A stretch of DNA of 34,563 nt, from IMG/VR virus record IMGVR_UViG_3300020369_000012, positions 1-34,563 of that record, one strand, 5' to 3'. The position numbers and the translations under genes are program-made. Below, in pieces: positions 8,191-33,710 of the stretch. Numbering within the stretch: the stretch's first letter is position 1; every line of letters begins with the position of its first letter. This DNA comes from a virus. Lineage: Duplodnaviria; Caudoviricetes. The notes below the pieces were generated by a model. It was given only the letters and a program-made list of their open reading frames with translations, was not told the DNA's origin and did no database searches.

Positions 8191-10226
8191 CCCTTTTTAA
8201 GTCTGGATAGCCGGGCGAAGTCGGCCAGTTCCTCAAGGCCGCTGCGCTGCGCCATTACGGGAACAGAGCGACCGCCCGGCAACTGGATCAGCGCCGCAGA
8301 AGAGAAGTCGCTGGCGGCACCAGCCAGCGCCGCGTCAGTCAGGCCTGCGCCTGCTTCGGACTCACGCAGGCCGCTAAGTACGCTGGCAAGGCGCCGCGAT
8401 GCGTCAGCAGTAAACACACGCTCACCGCCCCCAAACGCAACCAACTCCGGGCCGCGCTCACCCACCCAGGCAAGGCCTGGCGCAGCGCTGGGCGTGCCTG
8501 TCGCGTGACCTGGTATACCGCTGCCAGAGCTACCCGGAATGGGCGTCCAGCCAGCAGAGGCCGGCACCTCCGGTACGTTAAGGGTTGGAGTGATGACCAT
8601 CTCTTTACCAAGCGCCACACCCAGGGCAACGACCTTGGCTCGCAGATCCTCAATGGCTTCTGGGGGCATGAACGGCTTGACCTCCACCGAGGCCAGCTCT
8701 TTGACGCGCTGAAGCTCTGCGGTGATCGATGCCAGCTTTTTATCTGCATCCGTCTGCTGCAGGCGGTTGGCCTCCAGCTCGATTTGCTGCAGCTCTTTGG
8801 CGAAGCCGGTAAAACCGTAAGTGTTCTCTCCTGCCCGCTCCAGCTCCAGCAGCATCTCCAGCGCCTGCTGGGCTTGCCGCTGCGCACCTTCAAAGTCACC
8901 GCCGGCCAGAGACTGGCGGGCATTCAGCTTCAGCGCTTGCGCGGCACCGTAGCTTGCGCCGCCTGCCCCGCCCTGCAGCTGGGCCAGTGCATCGGCATAA
9001 CGCTTTTCAATTTCCAGCCGCTCGTCGCGGAATTTCTCTACGTCTCGGTTTGCCTCGCGCTCTGCCGTTTTCAGCTCGCTCAGCTTTTCCTTGGCGTCAT
9101 CAACCAGCTTTTTGTATGCATCCTTGATGGCTTGAGAGGACGTGACCACCGCGTTTTCCATCCGCTCGGAGCTGGCCTCAACCTCTCCCGCAACGCGGGT
9201 CACTGTTTCCCCAACGCTTTGGTATGAGCTGTCCCATAGCTTGCGCACCCGATCCATAGCGATGCCGGTATTGCGGGCGTTATCCTCACCCACCATGCGC
9301 ATAATGTCGGCAGCCTGGGATAGCTCACCACTGGCAACAGCAGCGGCCGCAGCGGCAGTGCCACCGATAAAGCGGCCCAGCGCGCCGAACCCATCGCCGA
9401 CAATGATCACGGCACTGGCCAGCACCTTCATCACGAAGCCGAGGACATTGGCAACCTGGGTTGCGGTCTGCCCCTCTCGCGACACATCAACAAGCAAGCC
9501 GGTGAGTTGGTTCATTGACGGCAGCAGCTCGGACGTAATCTGCTGCCCCACGCCTTGCGATACCGCCCCCAGCGTGTTGGCCGAGCGCTCGAAGGCTTTG
9601 GCGCCCTCAACGACATCATCGCTCATCACCAGGCCAAGCTCTCTGGCCTGCTCGGCCAGGCGCTGATACTCGGCACCGTTATCGCGCAGCAGCGGCAGCA
9701 GCAACGCGGCATCACTGGCAATGGCCTCCATGTAGAAGGTCATTTCATTCTGAGAGACGTTGGCCTGCTCCAGACTCTTAACGTAGAGCTGCAGAGCATC
9801 AGGACCGCTAAGCTCGCGAAACTGCTCAGCCGTTACCCCTACCTGCGGCGCGATGTTCTCGAAGAAATCGGCCAGCGGCCCGCCGCCTGTCTGCAGGAAG
9901 TCGCCAACCTTGTCGCGCACATCCTTGAAGATATCGCCCAGCTTGTCCTGCTCAATACCCATCGTCCGAGAGGCAAAGGCCCAAGTCTGAAACTTCTGAG
10001 CAGTAGTGCCAGACAATTCAGCCATGCGCACCATCTGAGCGGTAGCCAGGGCGCTCTCTTTCACAAAGGACGCCACCGCACTGACCGAGAACGCCCCCAG
10101 CAACGCCAGGCCCGCTTTCTTCGCCCCGGCGCTGAACCGTTCAAGCTGGTTGTCTGCCTGCTTGAAGGCGGGGCCGGCGTTGTTCTTGCCGTCTACCACC
10201 AGCTGCACGCGGGCCTTTTTGCTCAT
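8187..10226 (-). CDS. Tail tape measure protein
   Basis: Ala-rich helical, LSGPDALQLYVKSLEQANVSQ and C-terminal HATG..AWVGERGPEL motifs. Confidence 0.9.
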   Translation of the reverse strand: MSKKARVQLVVDGKNNAGPAFKQADNQLERFSAGAKKAGLALLGAFSVSAVASFVKESALATAQMVRMAELSGTTAQKFQTWAFASRTMGIEQDKLGDIFKDVRDKVGDFLQTGGGPLADFFENIAPQVGVTAEQFRELSGPDALQLYVKSLEQANVSQNEMTFYMEAIASDAALLLPLLRDNGAEYQRLAEQARELGLVMSDDVVEGAKAFERSANTLGAVSQGVGQQITSELLPSMNQLTGLLVDVSREGQTATQVANVLGFVMKVLASAVIIVGDGFGALGRFIGGTAAAAAAVASGELSQAADIMRMVGEDNARNTGIAMDRVRKLWDSSYQSVGETVTRVAGEVEASSERMENAVVTSSQAIKDAYKKLVDDAKEKLSELKTAEREANRDVEKFRDERLEIEKRYADALAQLQGGAGGASYGAAQALKLNARQSLAGGDFEGAQRQAQQALEMLLELERAGENTYGFTGFAKELQQIELEANRLQQTDADKKLASITAELQRVKELASVEVKPFMPPEAIEDLRAKVVALGVALGKEMVITPTLNVPEVPASAGWTPIPGSSGSGIPGHATGTPSAAPGLAWVGERGPELVAFGGGERVFTADASRRLASVLSGLRESEAGAGLTDAALAGAASDFSSAALIQLPGGRSVPVMAQRSGLEELADFARLSRLKKG

Positions 10227-24425: not shown

Positions 24426-24654
24426 GGCGCACCCCCAACTCAGCGAGCGCAGCATCCAGGTGCACAAGCTCAGCACCAGCCGGCACTCCGGCCAGCACAG
24501 CTGAATCGTTCGTTAGCATCAACGCCCCGCGAGTGATGGGCTCGCCCACCGCCCATGCATCAACCACCTGCGAGCAGCCAAAATGAGCCCGCAGGCGCTC
24601 GGCATTGGAGGTCTTGCCCTTTCCCTGTTCCGCATAGATGATGATTGTTCTCAT
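24418..24654 (-). CDS. Small protein with Walker A-like motif
   Basis: IIIYAEQGKGKTS; SD GAGGTG; overlaps primase start. Confidence 0.7.
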   Translation of the reverse strand: MRTIIIYAEQGKGKTSNAERLRAHFGCSQVVDAWAVGEPITRGALMLTNDSAVLAGVPAGAELVHLDAALAELGVRRG

Positions 24655-24677
24655 TGTTTCACCTCAAGGAGCTGACT

Positions 24678-25010
24678 ATGTTGCACGGAGAGCTGCGTCT
24701 CACCCACTTCCCCTACTGCCTCCAACGCCAGGAGGACGGGCGCTATGTGTTGCTGAATCGCAACTACAAACCGGTCGGTTTTTTCACTGGCGAGTGGATC
24801 ACCTACGGGGACTACCCCATCGGCGTTAAGGTCAAAGGCCTGACCGCCGCTGTTGCGGCCAGACTCGACTACCAGGGACGCGAGGATCTGGACAGGATCT
24901 ATCTGTACAACGATGGATGCGTGCCGACTGCCAGTGACGCCAACATGCAGCAATACCTCAAGCGCCTCGGCATTCTGATGAGCCTGCGAACAGACGAGGA
25001 AGAGCGCTAA
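24678..25010 (+). CDS. Hypothetical protein encoded antisense to the early right operon
   Basis: SD AAGGAG before ATG 24678; globular-looking sequence (PYCLQRQEDGRYVLLNRNYKPVGF). Confidence 0.75.
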   Translation: MLHGELRLTHFPYCLQRQEDGRYVLLNRNYKPVGFFTGEWITYGDYPIGVKVKGLTAAVAARLDYQGREDLDRIYLYNDGCVPTASDANMQQYLKRLGILMSLRTDEEER

Positions 25011-25011
25011 C

Positions 25012-25227
25012 CTAGCCACGGCGCACCTCCCGTTTCTGATAATCCACTTGGCACGGCATGCAGCGCTTGCACCCCGGAGCAGCTGCGCGCCGCGCCTCGG
25101 GAATGTCCTCACCGCAATCAATGCAGATAGTCAGGGATGGCCCTGCAGGGGTAGATGGGCGGGCAGCTAGTTGAGCCTCAAGCCACTCGGTTTGGTAATC
25201 AGTCGCGCGGTCGACGGTATCAGTCAT
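25012..25227 (-). CDS. TraR/DksA C4 zinc-finger protein (PtrB-like)
   Basis: DTVDRA and CIDCGEDIPEARR...CKRCMPCQ. Confidence 0.9.
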   Translation of the reverse strand: MTDTVDRATDYQTEWLEAQLAARPSTPAGPSLTICIDCGEDIPEARRAAAPGCKRCMPCQVDYQKREVRRG

Positions 25228-25747
25228 TAGATGCGCCCTCCGCCTCACGCTCCAGCACTCGCTCCAGCAGCATCATCGCTGCCATCGAGCGCCGCAGCTG
25301 CAGCTTGCACCGGGCCAACTCTTGCTGATCAATCCGGCCATCATTGGCCAAGCTGGCAGACACCTCACGCATCAGTAGGGACTGCTTGTCCAACGCCCCA
25401 CTGGTTGCGTTCAGCACCGAGCTGACCGACTGAGAGCCAATGCTTTGGCCCTCGGTCAGCTCCCGTAGATCAATCCAGCAGGCATCGCCAAACGCCTCAC
25501 AGATCGAATCCAGAATGCGGCCGTCGCGGGTGGCGTTGGTCACCTCTTCAATGTCGTCTGGGTTGGCAGCGTGCGTTGGCTGGGTCGGGCTCAGCTTGTG
25601 CTGCAGGGTGGACGCACTGCGCCCGAAGATCGCGGCGATTGCCGCTGCACCGCCGGGGTAGTCCCGGCTGGCGTGATACAAGGCCAAACGCAGAGGCAAA
25701 ACCTCGCGCTTGGCCCGTTCCGTACAACTCATGGCGGCTCGGCTCAT
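25220..25747 (-). CDS. CII-like phage regulatory protein
   Basis: DYPGGAAAIA, TLQHKLSPT, DGRIDQQE motifs; position after cro. Confidence 0.8.
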   Translation of the reverse strand: MSRAAMSCTERAKREVLPLRLALYHASRDYPGGAAAIAAIFGRSASTLQHKLSPTQPTHAANPDDIEEVTNATRDGRILDSICEAFGDACWIDLRELTEGQSIGSQSVSSVLNATSGALDKQSLLMREVSASLANDGRIDQQELARCKLQLRRSMAAMMLLERVLEREAEGASND

Positions 25748-25766
25748 GGCATTAGCTCCGTAACTC

Positions 25767-25799
25767 TGCCGTGCCACGCCACAACCGTTTTGCTACAGT
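25767..25799 (+). promoter_or_regulatory. PRE-like promoter (antisense to cro, pointing to cI)
   Basis: GTGCCA(25771-76)-17 nt-TACAGT(25794-99) with extended -10 TG; TGCC/CGCC tetramers flank the -35 as CII boxes do in lambda. Confidence 0.55.
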
Positions 25800-25805
25800 T
25801 GCACC

Positions 25806-26118
25806 GTGAGCACTGCTGTGGTGGTCACAAGTAGGGGCGGTCTTTGGTGGAAAGCCCCTGCACCGGGAGCCAGGCGCTTACATGCACCCGGCTCCCAAAA
25901 CAGCCAGCAACTCTGTGGTGGAGAGGCTGGCAAACCCGGCATCCGTGCCGGGCAAAGCGTGCGATAGGCGGTAAAGCTCTGTGGTGCCGCCTGTCACACA
26001 TGCAGCGGGGAAAAGACTGTGGTGGTCACCCCTGCTGCACCCAACGGCCGATCACTCTGTGGTGGAGAGACTGGCAAGCCCTGCGAAAGCAGGACGGTGA
26101 TAGCCGGGCTAGCCCGGC
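25806..26118 (+). ncRNA. Candidate structured ncRNA: array of ~10 hairpins, six with TGGTG(G) seeds
   Basis: Back-to-back stems; CTGTGGTG(G) at 25816, 25913, 25979, 26017, 26057 and TTTGGTGG at 25843; UCCG and GAAA tetraloops on + strand. Strand is inferred. Confidence 0.65.
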
Positions 26119-26124
26119 AGTCAT

Positions 26125-26352
26125 TCAAGCCGCCTGAGGCTGGTCTGCCTCTGGCGGGAAAACGTCATCCAGTGTGCAGGCACCACAATGCCGAGAAAGC
26201 ACCCCGACAATTGCGCGAGACTCGGCCAGCCCAGGCACACGCCGGCCAGACTCATAGTTACTCCAGCGCCCCTGCGACCAACCAAGCTCATCAGCCAAGA
26301 CAAGCTGACTCACTTTGGCCGCACGCCGAATTTCAGATATTCGATTGCCCAT
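26125..26352 (-). CDS. cro: Cro-like HTH repressor
   Basis: SQLVLADELGWSQGRWSNYESGRR; divergent from cI. Confidence 0.9.
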   Translation of the reverse strand: MGNRISEIRRAAKVSQLVLADELGWSQGRWSNYESGRRVPGLAESRAIVGVLSRHCGACTLDDVFPPEADQPQAA

Positions 26353-26380
26353 GCTGCCTCCTCAAATGGGATCTGACGCA

Positions 26381-26450
26381 AACATAACGACGAATCGTTG
26401 TTTTTGCAAGACGTTTAGTTGTCATTAAAGTTAACGATGCGTGATATTTT
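26381..26450. promoter_or_regulatory. OR region: pR (minus), PRM-like (plus) and operators
   Basis: Minus TTGCAA-17-TATGTT (26409-26381); 18-bp imperfect palindromes ATAACGACGAATCGTTGT (26384-26401) and AAGACGTTTAGTTGTCAT (26408-26425); no SD before cI, suggesting a leaderless mRNA. Confidence 0.65.
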
Positions 26451-26456
26451 TGACCC

Positions 26457-27131
26457 ATGGAAACCTTAGGCAAGAGAATCGCGCGACTGCGCAAAGCAAA
26501 AGACTTATCCCAGGCAGAGCTGGCAGCAGCTTGCGGTTGGGAAAACGGCCAAGCCCGCATCGGAAACTACGAGCTCGATAAGCGCGAACCAACACTATCG
26601 AACCTGCGCACCATCGCTGACGCCCTGGGCACTACCCTCATGCAACTGGTCGAGGGCGAGACTGACCAGGCACACCAAGAAACCAACCACACGCCATCAG
26701 CGCACGACTACGCACTGGTGCCGCAGTACACCGCCAAGGTTGCAGCCGGCAACGGCCAGATGAATGAGCACGTCGAAGTAAAAGGCGGGCTTGTCTTCAA
26801 ACGGGCGTGGCTAAATCGAATGAGCCTCAGAGAGCGAAACCTCCACGTCATTTACGTTGAAGGCCACAGCATGGAGCCGACAATCAGCGACGGAGACGTG
26901 CTTCTCTTTGATGAAAGCCAGACCTCCCCGAAGGACGGCCGGATTTACGTGCTAGCCAAGCCAGACGGCCAGCTAATCATCAAGCGATTGATTCAATCCC
27001 TAACCGGCGGCTGGATCATCCGAAGCGACAACGAAGACAAGCGAACATACCCGGATCAGCCCGTAGCCGACTCAGACATCGAACACATAAGCATTGTCGG
27101 GCGCGCAGTATGGCACGGGGGAGCGCTATAA
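26457..27131 (+). CDS. cI: CI/PrtR-like repressor (HTH + S24 autopeptidase)
   Basis: HTH N-terminus, AAG cleavage site, GHSMEP Ser and IIKRL Lys. Confidence 0.95.
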   Translation: METLGKRIARLRKAKDLSQAELAAACGWENGQARIGNYELDKREPTLSNLRTIADALGTTLMQLVEGETDQAHQETNHTPSAHDYALVPQYTAKVAAGNGQMNEHVEVKGGLVFKRAWLNRMSLRERNLHVIYVEGHSMEPTISDGDVLLFDESQTSPKDGRIYVLAKPDGQLIIKRLIQSLTGGWIIRSDNEDKRTYPDQPVADSDIEHISIVGRAVWHGGAL

Positions 27132-27168
27132 ACGCCCAGAGGAAAGTAGCAAAGCAAAGGAGAGCAAC

Positions 27169-27804
27169 ATGGTCGACTTGCACCAAGAGTTCGAGAATAG
27201 CCGGATATTCCACCAAGCCCGTATTGATCGGCGCTCAGCAGACGCACTGATAGGCCTTGCTTCCGGGATCACTGCCGATGGAAAGATAAACCAGCAGGAA
27301 GCCGAGTTCCTGAAGCGCTGGATCGAAACCAACATGAACCACTATGCCGATCCAGTGGTTAACCTGCTCTATCGGCGACTGGCGGACATGCTCAGCGACA
27401 ACCACTTGGACCAGGACGAGGCCGCAGAGCTACTGGATATGCTCAAGCAATTCACAGGCATCGAACTGGCAGCCGCCACCCCACTTCAGCGCCCTACCAC
27501 ACTCCCACTTAACGACCCCGCCCCCGATCTGGAATGCACCGATAGAGCGTTCCTTTTCACCGGGGTAATGGCATTCGGCCCAAGAAAGGATTGCGAGGCC
27601 ATAGTTATCAATCTCGGCGGACGAATAGCACCATCGGTCAGCAAGAAAGTGGACTTCCTTGTGGTTGGAACTATCGGCAACGACCAGTGGCTGCACAGCA
27701 GCTACGGCACCAAAATCAAGAAGGCCGTTGAACTAAGAGAAGCCGGAAACCCTATCGCAATAATCAGCGAGGAGCACTGGCAAAACACCCTGCTGGGAAA
27801 ATAA
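27169..27804 (+). CDS. TerB-like/BRCT-domain accessory protein
   Basis: GITADGKINQQEAEFL N-terminus; FLFTG..GG..SVSKKVDFLVVG..KIKKA..IISEEHW BRCT motif; SD AAGGAG. Confidence 0.8.
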   Translation: MVDLHQEFENSRIFHQARIDRRSADALIGLASGITADGKINQQEAEFLKRWIETNMNHYADPVVNLLYRRLADMLSDNHLDQDEAAELLDMLKQFTGIELAAATPLQRPTTLPLNDPAPDLECTDRAFLFTGVMAFGPRKDCEAIVINLGGRIAPSVSKKVDFLVVGTIGNDQWLHSSYGTKIKKAVELREAGNPIAIISEEHWQNTLLGK

Positions 27805-27848
27805 AACAACAAATCGTCATTGACCGTATAACAACACTGCGTTATAAA
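27803..27848 (+). promoter_or_regulatory. pL-like early promoter with two operators
   Basis: TTGACC(27820-25)-17-TATAAA(27843-48); AAAACAACAAATCGTCAT (27803-20) and ATAACAACACTGCGTTAT (27828-45) resemble the OR palindromes. Confidence 0.75.
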
Positions 27849-27882
27849 TTGCCTCGTCTACCACCACAGACGAGGCAATGTC

Positions 27883-28047
27883 ATGTCTACCACCACAGTC
27901 CATGCACTCCCATCGTGCGACCACCACCGCATCTTTGAGATCCGCCGCGCACTGACCGGCACCAACTGCAAGCTGGTACTGGCCAAGCGCAAACCCGTCA
28001 GCCGTACCACCACCCAGGGCAACCCGTGGGGAGGTGATGCAGCATGA
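27883..28047 (+). CDS. 54-aa basic first gene of early operon (below ORF-track cutoff)
   Basis: MSTTTVHALPSCDHHRIFEIRRALTGTNCKLVLAKRKPVSRTTTQGNPWGGDAA; SD GAGG; stop overlaps next ATG. Confidence 0.7.
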   Translation: MSTTTVHALPSCDHHRIFEIRRALTGTNCKLVLAKRKPVSRTTTQGNPWGGDAA

Positions 28048-28630: not shown

Positions 28631-28915
28631 GTGATCCGCGACCTCAAACACGCTGCCGAGCAACTGGGCACCACTCGGCCAAAGCTCATCACCATGATGA
28701 AAAAGGCCGGGCTGCTGAACGCCCAAAACCTGCCCATGCACCCGCAGCGCGACCGCTTCTACCTCATCGAGCACGAGGGCAACTGGTACCACCCCGTCTG
28801 CGGCATGCAGTACAGCAAGAGCACCAGGGTGACGCAGGCCGGTATCAACTGGCTGGCCGACAAGCTGGGGCTTGAGCGCCCACCTGTACCAGAGGATCGG
28901 CGCGGTGTGGCCTAG
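28631..28915 (+). CDS. Antirepressor KilA-C (ANT) domain protein
   Basis: LKHAAEQLGT..KL..M...GLL..QNLP..TRVTQAGINWLA. Confidence 0.75.
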   Translation: MIRDLKHAAEQLGTTRPKLITMMKKAGLLNAQNLPMHPQRDRFYLIEHEGNWYHPVCGMQYSKSTRVTQAGINWLADKLGLERPPVPEDRRGVA

Positions 28916-29063: not shown

Positions 29064-29392
29064 CCATGAGCGATGCCGACAACCAACGGCTCCTGCCGTT
29101 CAAGCCAGCGCCCGCCGCCGACACGCTGGAACGCCTGTTCCGCGTGTTCGGTGACGAGCTGATCCCTACCGAGGAAGTACGCGCCAAGTACTTCCGCACC
29201 ACCAACAAAGACACCTTTGGCGCGGCCCTGGGCACCGAGCGCATCCCGCTGCCGGTGACCACGCTGGACAACAGCCAGAAGGCCGCGAAGTTCATCAACA
29301 TCCGCCACCTGGCCGCGTACATCGAGCAGCGCGCCTGGGAAGCGGACCAGCAACTGGCAGCCCGGTGCGAACCGGACAGCCAAACCGCCTGA
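29060..29392 (+). CDS. prtN: Pyocin activator PrtN-family protein
   Basis: LIPTEEVRAKYF, IPLPVTTLDNSQKAAKFINIRHLAAYIE. Confidence 0.85.
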   Translation: MTMSDADNQRLLPFKPAPAADTLERLFRVFGDELIPTEEVRAKYFRTTNKDTFGAALGTERIPLPVTTLDNSQKAAKFINIRHLAAYIEQRAWEADQQLAARCEPDSQTA

Positions 29393-29430
29393 CTGCCACC
29401 ACCAGTCAGACCACCACAGAGGAAGCAACC

Positions 29431-29862
29431 ATGAACCAAGAGATTGTTATGGCGGTATCCATCGGCATCTGCCTGCTGTCGTACCTGTTCGGCATCCTGA
29501 CGGGCAAGGTCGCAGCCAGGGAACACTGGCGCGGGCAGATTGAGCAGCAGCGCAAACAGCTGCTCAGCCAACGGCGCGAAACGCATCAGCTGGAAGTGGA
29601 GCACAAGCGCCTGCAGGCCGAGCACGCCGCACTGGTGAGCCGAGTCCAGCACGAGCGGTACACCCTGCTGCGCGGCGCTCATGAGCTGCGGCTGGCCAGC
29701 AACACCTTCAACGCGCTCAACTCCCCAGAGCACGCCCAGACCGCCATGCAAGTTGGCCTTGAGCTGCAGGCGATGGCTAACAAAGGCATCACCACCGAGC
29801 AGGCCGCGAACGTGGAGCCTGAGCTGCCGAACCAGTGCGAAGAAATGGGGGTGGCGGCATGA
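29431..29862 (+). CDS. Hypothetical protein, N-terminal TM plus coiled coil
   Basis: SD GAGGA; hydrophobic N-terminus. Confidence 0.7.
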   Translation: MNQEIVMAVSIGICLLSYLFGILTGKVAAREHWRGQIEQQRKQLLSQRRETHQLEVEHKRLQAEHAALVSRVQHERYTLLRGAHELRLASNTFNALNSPEHAQTAMQVGLELQAMANKGITTEQAANVEPELPNQCEEMGVAA

Positions 29863-30772: not shown

Positions 30773-30966
30773 ACACGACCATCATCAACGCGCTGCAGAC
30801 AGAACGCCGCGCCCACCTGGCTAATATCCAGCTGCTGGAAGCCACCCTCCCCGACCTTGAGGCGGACAACGCCGACCGAGCGCACCGGACCATCGCGCAC
30901 CTGCGGAGCCGGGTTGAACTGATCAATGCCAAGCTGCAGCGGCCCAGCACGAGGGCGGCAGCATGA
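30769..30966 (+). CDS. Small coiled-coil hypothetical protein
   Basis: ATGA-coupled at both ends. Confidence 0.65.
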   Translation: MNTTIINALQTERRAHLANIQLLEATLPDLEADNADRAHRTIAHLRSRVELINAKLQRPSTRAAA

Positions 30967-31223
30967 CCAGCAGCACCGCAAAAGCTCCGGTCGAGATGCT
31001 GCCCGACAGCCCGACAACAAAGAGCCTCTGCCCCGCAGGGGCAGGCCTTATTGACCAGTGTGAAGCCACGAAGGGCGCGCATACCCCACCACAAGCGTGC
31101 GCCGCGCCCGCCATTGATCGAGCTACCGCAACCACCCCAGCAACGCCGCATGCGCAGCTTGCCAAGGGGTATAAGCACCCCCTGCCCGCCACCACCGGGC
31201 ACACCACAGCAGAGGAAGACGCC

Positions 31224-31619
31224 ATGACCACCACAAAAGAAACCAAAGCCGCCAAAGCAACCATCAAAGACCTGCAGAACCTCATCCGCACCCAGCACGA
31301 ATACACTGAGGGGCTGGCCGGACTGCTGCGACAGATCCGCACCGAAGGGCTGACCGACAGCCTCACCCAGCAGATTGACCAGATCCTGCAGAAGCACACC
31401 CCTTGCAGCACCTGCGGCGGCAGCGCACCGAACTGCCCGGACTGCGACGGGGCGAGCACCCAGCAGGAAACGCTGCTCCCGATTCGTCACCCAGGAACAG
31501 AGCAGCGAGCACGCGAGCTGATGGCGGCGAACCCACGATTGAGCGCCAAGAAAGCCGCCATGCAAGCCAAACGGGAAATCACCGAGGCAGGCATTCGGAA
31601 CGGAGGTGCCGCGCAATGA
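31224..31619 (+). CDS. Hypothetical protein with CxxC-x5-CxxC zinc ribbon (frame also open from 30963)
   Basis: SD GAGGA before ATG 31224; CSTCGGSAPNCPDC. Confidence 0.65.
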   Translation: MTTTKETKAAKATIKDLQNLIRTQHEYTEGLAGLLRQIRTEGLTDSLTQQIDQILQKHTPCSTCGGSAPNCPDCDGASTQQETLLPIRHPGTEQRARELMAANPRLSAKKAAMQAKREITEAGIRNGGAAQ

Positions 31620-32557: not shown

Positions 32558-32838
32558 GCATCGACATCCCCCGCGCCTGGGAGATCGCTCGATCTGTATC
32601 TCCCGAGTATCACCACAACGCATGCAGCTTCAACGTGACCAACGGCGGCGTGTTGTGCGACTGCGACGTTATCTATAAGCACGCCGAGTATCTGGACAAG
32701 GCCAACTTTTACGGCAAGGACGGGGCAGTGCTGCAACCGACACAGCCCACACCGTGCAAAGGCTACTGCCTGACTCGGAGCGGCAACCGCACCACCGGCC
32801 AGATCCAGTGCGCAGACTGCGGGAGGCCGAAGCCATGA
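32554..32838 (+). CDS. Cys-rich hypothetical protein
   Basis: ATGA-coupled; HHNACS..LCDCD. Confidence 0.6.
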   Translation: MSIDIPRAWEIARSVSPEYHHNACSFNVTNGGVLCDCDVIYKHAEYLDKANFYGKDGAVLQPTQPTPCKGYCLTRSGNRTTGQIQCADCGRPKP

Positions 32839-33710
32839 CCACTCCCATCATCAACTCCTACTTCTGCGGGGGCGGGCTGATGGATATCGGCCTGATGAAA
32901 GCCGGCGTCACTATCGGGCAAGCCTTTGAACTGGATGGCGAGGCTTGCCGGACGTACCGCCACAACCTGGGCAACCACGTTGTGCAGTGCGATCTGGCCC
33001 ACGAACTGGTGCTGGAACAGGACAACTGCGACGGCATGGTGTTCACCTACCCCTGCACCAAGTACAGCGCCATTGCCGACATTCACGGCACACGCACCGG
33101 CGATGAGCTGTTCCTGCACGCCCTGCGCCACCTGGCGCTGGCGCGGCCGGAGTTTTATATCGTCGAGAACGTACCGGGCATGCGCGCCTTCCCCGTCGTG
33201 ATGGAAGCCATGAGCAAATTGCCTGACTACTACGTGCAGGTGCTCTGCCCGATCAAGTCGGAGACATGGCTGCCGCAGCGCCGCCACCGCCTGATCATCA
33301 TCGGCACCAAACGTCCATTTGCCGTCCGCCCCCCCGTCGCCACAAAGCCACTGACACTCAAGGACGTTCTTGAGCGAGATCCGCAGATCACCGTACCAAA
33401 GGCAGTACGCATCCGTATGACCGGCGGCTACCGTGATCGGCCAATCATTAGCGACCCGGCCAAGGGGGACATTGCCCCCACCTGCGTGGCCCACTACGCG
33501 AAGGACAAGAGCACCCGGCTGGTCGCGGACAAGCGATTCCCGCTGGGTGTGCGCCCCTACTCCGTGCGCGAGTACGCCCGCCTGCAGGGCGTGCCGGACT
33601 GGTTCACGTTCCCCGTATCGGACACCGCCGCCTACCGCCAGATCGGCAACGGAGTGAGCACCGTTGTAGGTGAGTGGGTTGGCCGGGAAATAGTGAGGTA
33701 CATGGCATGA
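32835..33710 (+). CDS. DNA (cytosine-5) methyltransferase
   Basis: FCGGG (I), YPC (IV), ENV (VI), QRRHR (VIII), REYARLQG (IX), YRQIGNGV (X). Confidence 0.9.
   Translation: MTTPIINSYFCGGGLMDIGLMKAGVTIGQAFELDGEACRTYRHNLGNHVVQCDLAHELVLEQDNCDGMVFTYPCTKYSAIADIHGTRTGDELFLHALRHLALARPEFYIVENVPGMRAFPVVMEAMSKLPDYYVQVLCPIKSETWLPQRRHRLIIIGTKRPFAVRPPVATKPLTLKDVLERDPQITVPKAVRIRMTGGYRDRPIISDPAKGDIAPTCVAHYAKDKSTRLVADKRFPLGVRPYSVREYARLQGVPDWFTFPVSDTAAYRQIGNGVSTVVGEWVGREIVRYMA

Follow-up and report, generated by a model that had tools for sequence, protein, structure and literature searches.

An array of hairpins fills the gap between cro and cII in the phage genome studied here, which raises the question of what kind of element it is, from which strand it would act and on which targets. 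The window, by which we mean the whole stretch of 34,563 nt that was analysed, carries terminase, capsid and tape-measure genes and represents a temperate Pseudomonas-family phage. Its cI and cro genes are divergent, and a VapE/Toprim primase-helicase gene is located 1.3 kb from the array. The cII product matches Pfam Phage_CP76, which we take to be the family of phage 186 CII, and the closest relative found is the CII of a Halopseudomonas prophage (77% identity). The initial annotation had spoken of a lambdoid switch; the gene order is indeed lambda-like, whereas CII and its promoter follow the type of phage 186. The features of the region are as follows:

25220–25747, − strand: cII (Pfam Phage_CP76, E 5.7e-20; start codon taken from alignment with homologues)
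25747–25771, no strand: predicted CII operator, an inverted repeat of TGGCA (25747–51) and TGCCG (25767–71), with centres about −57/−37 from the predicted start
25771–25799, + strand: pE-like promoter, GTGCCA, 17 bp, extended −10 TG-C-TACAGT (fixed-offset TAnnnT in homologues)
25806–26124, + strand: predicted ncRNA of ten hairpins (fold; family-model match, E 2.5e-14; homologue abundant in RNA-seq)
25816–26065, + strand: six seeds, (C/U)UGUGGUG or CUUUGGUG, in H1, H2, H4, H6, H7 and H8
25940–25947, − strand: H5 loop on the cro–cII mRNA, CACGGAUG, a predicted RsmA/CsrA-type ANGGAN site
26125–26352, − strand: cro-like HTH gene (domain match)
26457–27131, + strand: cI repressor gene, HTH and S24 peptidase (domain match)

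Other genes of the window lie outside this region. A BRCT-domain accessory gene (27094–27804, +) between cI and the leftward promoter has a weak PADLOC PDC-S48 match (E 2e-7, 62 aa) and is possibly defence-related, a DNA methyltransferase gene (32754–33710, +) is part of the leftward operon, and a 121-aa ORF (24645–25010, +), reversed within the rightward operon after the DksA/TraR gene, has no match in Pfam, PHROG or PADLOC.

Minimum free energy folding of window positions 25800–26125 on the + strand yields the ten hairpins with which the initial annotation had tiled the gap: H1 (25806–28), H2 (25831–61), H3 (25865–96), H4 (25903–31), H5 (25935–52), H6 (25959–99), H7 (26001–39), H8 (26047–75), H9 (26080–93) and H10 (26103–18). 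The array has a folding z-score of −6.5 on the + strand and −5.1 on the − strand, and none of 100 shuffles folds as well on either. The seed motif YTKTGGTG occurs on the + strand at 25816, 25842, 25913, 25979, 26017 and 26057, six times within 250 nt, against an expectation of 6.2 over the whole 34.5 kb on both strands. All six seeds are therefore where they had been placed, but those of H1 and H6 are mostly paired in the + strand fold. Similarly, the 24-nt repeat said to unite H4–H5 with H8–H9 is present at 25910 and 26054 on the + strand, but it spans only the seed hairpin and linker and not H5 or H9. As also described before, the array begins 7 nt past a −10 box (TACAGT, 25794–99). Because no U-tract terminator was found past H10 in the window, transcription may continue through cro, in antisense, and on into cI, and the RNA may then double as a cI establishment message. 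Small ORFs in the gap (e.g., 25844–26137, +) were set aside in view of many out-of-frame indels in the homologue alignments, and readings of the array as Chi-like or as iterons were dropped.

Homologous loci were collected through cII: one search gave 12 loci, and from 125 genome and 492 viral loci the best 80 each were taken, some contigs being included twice. Of the resulting 173 oriented sequences, the window among them, one with cII at the contig end (L111) was left out; the other 172 cluster at 80% identity into 43 representatives, 34 from a Pseudomonadaceae clade and 9 from a Halomonadaceae clade. A chain of seeds precedes cII in all 172 of these loci, with 1–3 seeds per array in the 9 Halomonadaceae-clade and 1–10 in the 34 Pseudomonadaceae-clade representatives, while the cro family of the window is found in only 39 of the 173 loci. 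Among 26 aligned P. fluorescens-type arrays the seeds are nearly invariant and the stems covary, with double-sided changes at 31 of 71 pairs compared to 13.7 in shuffled and 5–9 in slid controls, kinship inflating the contrast with the shuffles. A model built from 26 homologues recovers the array on the + strand (E 2.5e-14) as its sole match in the window. Array and leader are also found in the cultured phages Haddon, vB_Pae_U5 and Halomonas phage vB_HmeY_H4907, with a partial match in LPPA36, and the array (presence only) in Logan contigs X1 and X12. One locus with a diverged cII start region (L151) carries an intact promoter-plus-array copy far upstream of it, ~655 nt before cII.

The initial annotation recognised no described family in the array, and Rfam agrees: the scan of window positions 24500–27500 gave no match to C4 (RF01695) at E ≤ 10, and eight homologous loci gave 0 matches at gathering score. 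The only Rfam match in the scanned 24500–27500 segment, mir-9318 at E 9.9, was rejected as chance. The element is undescribed in the literature searched, which included few subscription papers; the motifs of Weinberg 2010 include c4, c4-a1b1 and TwoAYGGAY, and the accessible text of that paper contains no description of the array. A conserved, multi-seed + strand RNA without an Rfam family is supported.

The promoter ahead of this RNA is predicted, from its sequence and that of its homologues, to be a CII-activated, pE-like promoter. In 36 of the 43 representatives a TAnnnT −10 box is found at a fixed offset, 49–53 nt from the cII start, and 27 of these 36 carry the TG extension; the 7 representatives lacking a −10 box at the usual offset have duplicated arrays with an internal promoter copy. 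Both TGGCA/TGCC halves of the operator are present in 40 of 43 representatives, spaced 20 bp apart in 35 of the 40, and they are positioned at −58/−38 ±1 in all 33 representatives that have both halves plus the −10 box. The accessible text of PMC6593788 describes the CII sites of 186 pE as an inverted repeat centred at −58 and −38, two helical turns apart, and pE itself as converging on the lytic promoter with negligible basal activity. The array promoter shares the −58/−38 inverted-repeat geometry and has a 186-family CII encoded beside it (PF06892, E 5.7e-20). Unlike at 186 pE, the first ~300 nt downstream constitute a structured RNA, with a terminator in 23 of 43 representatives. U-tract terminators are found on the GUGGUG strand in at least 23 of 43 representatives versus 5 of 43 on the other strand. 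A sigma-70 consensus scan of the window did not list the array promoter. In L012, L023 and their relatives, a GTGGTG copy 47 nt before cII overlaps the extended −10 and therefore lies outside the antisense RNA; within the leader of the cII mRNA it forms a CACCAC loop that might serve as a target for feedback.

Expression of a homologous array was analysed in two raw-read RNA-seq runs from one unstranded study, with L123 as the reference and read substitutions that fit L124; about 12,000 of 11–12 million reads map to L123. The read depth, which is unstranded, reaches ~11,000 over the homologous array compared to ~30–80 over cII, a difference of about 200-fold. The signal forms one continuous ~200-nt plateau with no sign of cleavage into individual hairpins, and the suggestion that the array is possibly processed into separate small RNAs draws no support from this plateau and its one sharp edge. 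Most molecules end abruptly at 9920/9924, 16–20 nt past the predicted start and where the first long hairpin begins to pair, which could reflect processing or library end loss; the opposite edge is ragged, with loose ends running on into the terminator. Because the sharp edge lies on the promoter side and the ragged edge at the terminator, we infer that the 5' end of the RNA is on the promoter side. The same ~200-fold excess over cII depth (unstranded) bears on CII dependence: since a high level of the RNA goes together with very low transcription of cII, strict CII dependence fits poorly, and the data suggest either basal promoter activity, unlike the negligible basal activity of 186 pE, or great stability of the RNA.

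The + strand had originally been favoured on account of tetraloops and G–U pairs, and this argument did not survive. G–U and A–C pairs are balanced at 64:72 in 41 arrays and at 35:28 at pairs common to both strand folds, and the z-scores of the two strands are equal (−4.0 vs −3.9). An earlier, looser G–U/A–C count was rejected because its extension reached into A/C-rich linkers. It is the promoter, terminator and operator evidence that favours the GUGGUG strand, and from promoter, terminator and RNA-edge pattern we therefore infer a + strand RNA.

Complementarity to the seeds places the likely targets of such an RNA, which escaped the initial annotation, at CACCAC sites on the ribosome-binding sites of the leftward-type operon. 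This operon is encoded on the + strand, begins at the promoter at 27820–48 and includes KilAC antirepressor, PrtN/excisionase-like and YfbR-like genes. Its relevant features are:

27820–27848, + strand: PL-like promoter TTGACC-17-TATAAA (from sequence; TTGAC.. plus a −10 block ahead of the leader in most homologues listed)
27848–27879, + strand: candidate target 1, a leader hairpin with a ACCACCAC loop (CCACCACAG, 27861–69), whose 3' arm contains the Shine-Dalgarno sequence GAGG
27883–28047, + strand: first leftward ORF, 54 aa, leader-like, stop overlapping the next start
27889–27900, + strand: candidate target 2, ACCACCACAGUC, codons 3–6 of the 54-aa ORF, 12 nt complementary to H7
28631–28915, + strand: KilAC-type antirepressor gene, same operon, downstream of candidate targets 1 and 2
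29390–29433, + strand: candidate target 3, a CCACCAC-loop hairpin, then GACCACCACAG directly ahead of the Shine-Dalgarno sequence AGGA and the ATG at 29431
31181–31236, + strand: candidate target 4, a CCACCAC-loop hairpin, then CACCACAG ahead of AGGA and the probable start, with a further site in the first codons

Of all hexamers at the leftward starts of 41 representatives CACCAC ranks first, being present at 86 of 275 compared to 10 of 221 rightward and late starts, a contrast whose p value kinship inflates. It occurs at leftward starts in 39 of the 41 loci, and within the arrays GTGGTG is one of the two most widely shared hexamers (40 of 41); CACCAC[AG] is found in 97 of 7117 random leftward windows. 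The leftward sites lie on Shine-Dalgarno sequences and first codons, are often unstructured and do not precede terminators. Net of opening costs, H7 is predicted to form a 12-nt duplex with 27889–27900 at −16 kcal/mol and 11-nt duplexes with two distal sites at −13 and −14.5 kcal/mol; at the cI and ant starts of the window no complementary run was found. The ORF at 30963–31619 (+) probably has its true start at an internal ATG near 31223, following the CACCAC pair and an AGGA Shine-Dalgarno sequence. Because the 54-aa ORF is poorly conserved among homologues and its stop overlaps the next start, we suggest that it is a coupling leader; it has no Pfam family, an atlas search returned only unnamed clusters below 0.8, and tblastn against cultured phages gave no match. 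Part of the leader's inverted repeat (27848–27879) precedes the predicted start site; complete masking of the Shine-Dalgarno sequence would therefore require transcripts that enter by read-through from the cI side (−18.7 vs −5.0 kcal/mol).

Evidence that seeds and targets change together is weak overall; rare changes in the core are telling. Leaders are complementary to their own array over 12.3 nt and to arrays of other groups over 11.7 nt (p 0.43; 119 unique pairs from 151 loci), whereas by group the comparison of own and other arrays gives 20 versus 16 of 36 groups (p 0.015). A wobble-direction test was neutral (47 vs 57), and the association of TTCC leaders with GGAA units was not significant (p 0.31). 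GUGGUA is found in 3 of 119 arrays and UACCAC in 3 of 119 leaders, and the two coincide in L095 and L085 (~0.001, hypergeometric, calculated by hand); L003, which is the contig of L095, and L085 are divided by a 100/100 branch in the cII tree. The array with GUGGUA that lacks a matched leader retains a GUGGUG unit, and the unmatched UACCAC leader can pair by G–U. One more leader has AACCAC, without a matching seed.

A second type of loop draws attention to the opposite strand. The loop of H5 had been described as a UCCG tetraloop of the + strand, but it behaves as ANGGA on the other strand, and a UNCG tetraloop was rejected since the fourth base is variable and the closing pair is not C–G. From its sequence, H5 more likely presents the loop ACGGAU, of RsmA type, on the cII mRNA; the accessible text of PMC3791407 gives ANGGAN within a hairpin loop as the motif of RsmA/RsmN. 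GGA loops on the cII strand are present in 34 of 43 representatives, namely all 34 of the Pseudomonadaceae clade and 0 of 9 of the Halomonadaceae clade. There are one to four per array, with A at −2 in 52 of 75 and N, which is free, being C49/U14/G7/A5, whereas the other strand yielded just 1 ANGGA loop. The hairpins thus resemble those of the RsmY/RsmZ type in their ANGGA loops, here on the cII mRNA strand, but the loops are few, lie in an mRNA leader rather than in a dedicated sponge and are absent from 9 of 9 Halomonadaceae-clade representatives.

The P. putida-type phages carry promoter and array in two copies (16 unique loci). The tandem duplication comprises CII operator, promoter and array and is located ~700 nt before cII in L008–L011, L025, L038, L048, L139, L147–L153, L158 and L161. 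In the distal copy the −10 box and terminator are retained together with three seeds that are invariant in 16 of 16 loci, but a TCC loop remains in 4 of 16 and the first TCC hairpin has been lost. The cII-proximal copy, by contrast, has both TCC loops in all 16 loci and most seeds and has lost the −10 box and terminator; no other consensus promoter was found within 300 nt of cII in the proximal copies. Read on the cII mRNA, the TCC loops are ANGGA loops. The duplicated arrays apparently share out two roles between them, and both strands seem to be under selection, which would explain the neutral G–U result. As the promoter-less copy keeps most seeds and, in many relatives, the −47 seed lies upstream of the −10 box, the CACCAC loops would also be selected on the mRNA strand.

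In order to rationalise these observations, we favour as the probable explanation that a + strand RNA made from the pE-like promoter pairs at dual CACCAC sites, blocks leftward early translation and covers the cII leader. Either CII or a basal level of transcription from the extended −10 promoter would drive synthesis of an RNA antisense to the cro–cII message. Loop–loop contact at GUGGUG/CACCAC would then spread over 10–13 bp into weak upper stems, and the several seeds would let one RNA cover both sites of a target, the hairpin loop and the site adjacent to the Shine-Dalgarno sequence or in the first codons. With the 54-aa leader ORF blocked, the coupled downstream genes, including the antirepressor-like and excisionase-like ones, would be silenced, and a silenced leftward operon would favour or stabilise lysogeny. 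Being fully complementary to the cII leader, the RNA would in addition damp cII. It is likely that an RNA brake is in this way added to the decision between lysis and dormancy.

The same loops might instead be read on the sense strand, the CACCAC loop of both early transcripts being recognised by a protein or RNA polymerase, with the array serving as a multivalent platform or sponge and the antisense RNA only masking it. Selection on both strands keeps such a protein site alive as an explanation. The antitermination elements nutL/nutR of lambda and putL/putR of HK022 are placed like the CACCAC loops on both early transcripts; they too have one sense-strand copy in the leader of the leftward operon and another in the cro–cII interval, so that position and strand fit. 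Moreover, the leftward leaders share the 15-mer CUCUCCACCACAGAG with the − strand of the array, where CACCAC loops are also more open than on the + strand, the promoter-less duplicates and the −47 copy retain them, and the hairpins are strand-neutral. However, no candidate binding protein is apparent, the first leftward ORF being poorly conserved and without Pfam family, and the leftward sites coincide with Shine-Dalgarno sequences or first codons, often unstructured and not before terminators. The invariant seeds belong to the copy bearing promoter and terminator, and the abundant RNA ends short of cII, where depth is ~200-fold lower. We therefore regard recognition on the sense strand as unlikely.

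An RNA acting only in cis, either an OOP-like antisense of the cII leader or the 5' end of an attenuated pE transcript, would have its full complementarity to the cro–cII mRNA built in, and the exact pE geometry as well as the weak overall co-change with the leftward sites agree with it; the leftward CACCAC would then be ordinary C/A-rich translation enhancers. We think this improbable, as CACCAC is scarce at rightward and late starts (10/221) and in random leftward windows (CACCAC[AG] 97/7117), an invariant loop sequence is needless for a cis-antisense RNA, and two matching core changes were found. That the hairpins function at the DNA level, as iterons in replication or as single-strand signals to the primase-helicase encoded nearby, seems very improbable. 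The absence of a G–U bias and the VapE/Toprim gene 1.3 kb away speak for it, but the array gives rise to a discrete and very abundant transcript, is flanked by promoter and terminator, and has its complements at ribosome-binding sites.

The preferred reading, trans-acting antisense control by the + strand RNA, has close known counterparts in the C4, P4 CI and N15 CA RNAs. In P1 and P7, C4 (RF01695) is an RNA of about 77 nt, released by RNase P from a longer precursor, with stem-loops P1–P3 and two distinct loops a' and b', which pair at the ribosome-binding region upstream of the antirepressor gene and maintain lysogeny (accessible text of PMC5320573). The loops of the array likewise have their complements at ribosome-binding sites in an operon that contains an antirepressor gene, a likeness of complementarity only. 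The array differs in its ten serial hairpins over ~315 nt (a ~200-nt plateau in the homologue) instead of a 77-nt three-stem RNA, and in being its own transcription unit antisense to cro–cII, whereas C4 is cut out of its target transcript. In place of loops a' and b' it repeats one seed 1–10 times, its second loop type fitting ANGGA on the other strand, and it would have several target genes. The array RNA likely works like P1 C4, although model match, size and shape, and loop design show that it is not a C4 member. According to the accessible text of PMC12197685, OOP, aQ and sar represent antisense control of switch genes, aQ being made from a CII-dependent promoter. The array RNA resembles lambda OOP and aQ and P22 sar in this respect, but these have a single target and no repeated seeds, whereas the complements of the array RNA lie 1.8–5 kb away. 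The array is real, and it is probably a new variant of loop-mediated antisense control in phages.

The gap between cro and cII has been much studied, yet widespread temperate phages of Pseudomonas and Halomonas appear to carry an abundant, undescribed RNA there. As the array persists through exchanges of the cro and cI families, it could confer cross-immunity on phages whose repressors differ, and the array may explain what CII activation produces where a terminator separates pE from cI. Because cultured phages carry the array, the model is directly testable. Tentatively, and with some doubt, we further propose that the array has two faces: a CII-linked, multi-guide RNA from the + strand would silence a whole early operon via paired sites at several of its genes, independently of the cI immunity type, while the cII leader on the − strand would read the Gac/Rsm state of the host through its ANGGA loops. 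If this is true, duplicated arrays would have divided both jobs between their copies, and the choice between lysis and lysogeny in a large group of Pseudomonas and Halomonas phages would be governed by an RNA circuit connected to the lifestyle signalling of the host.
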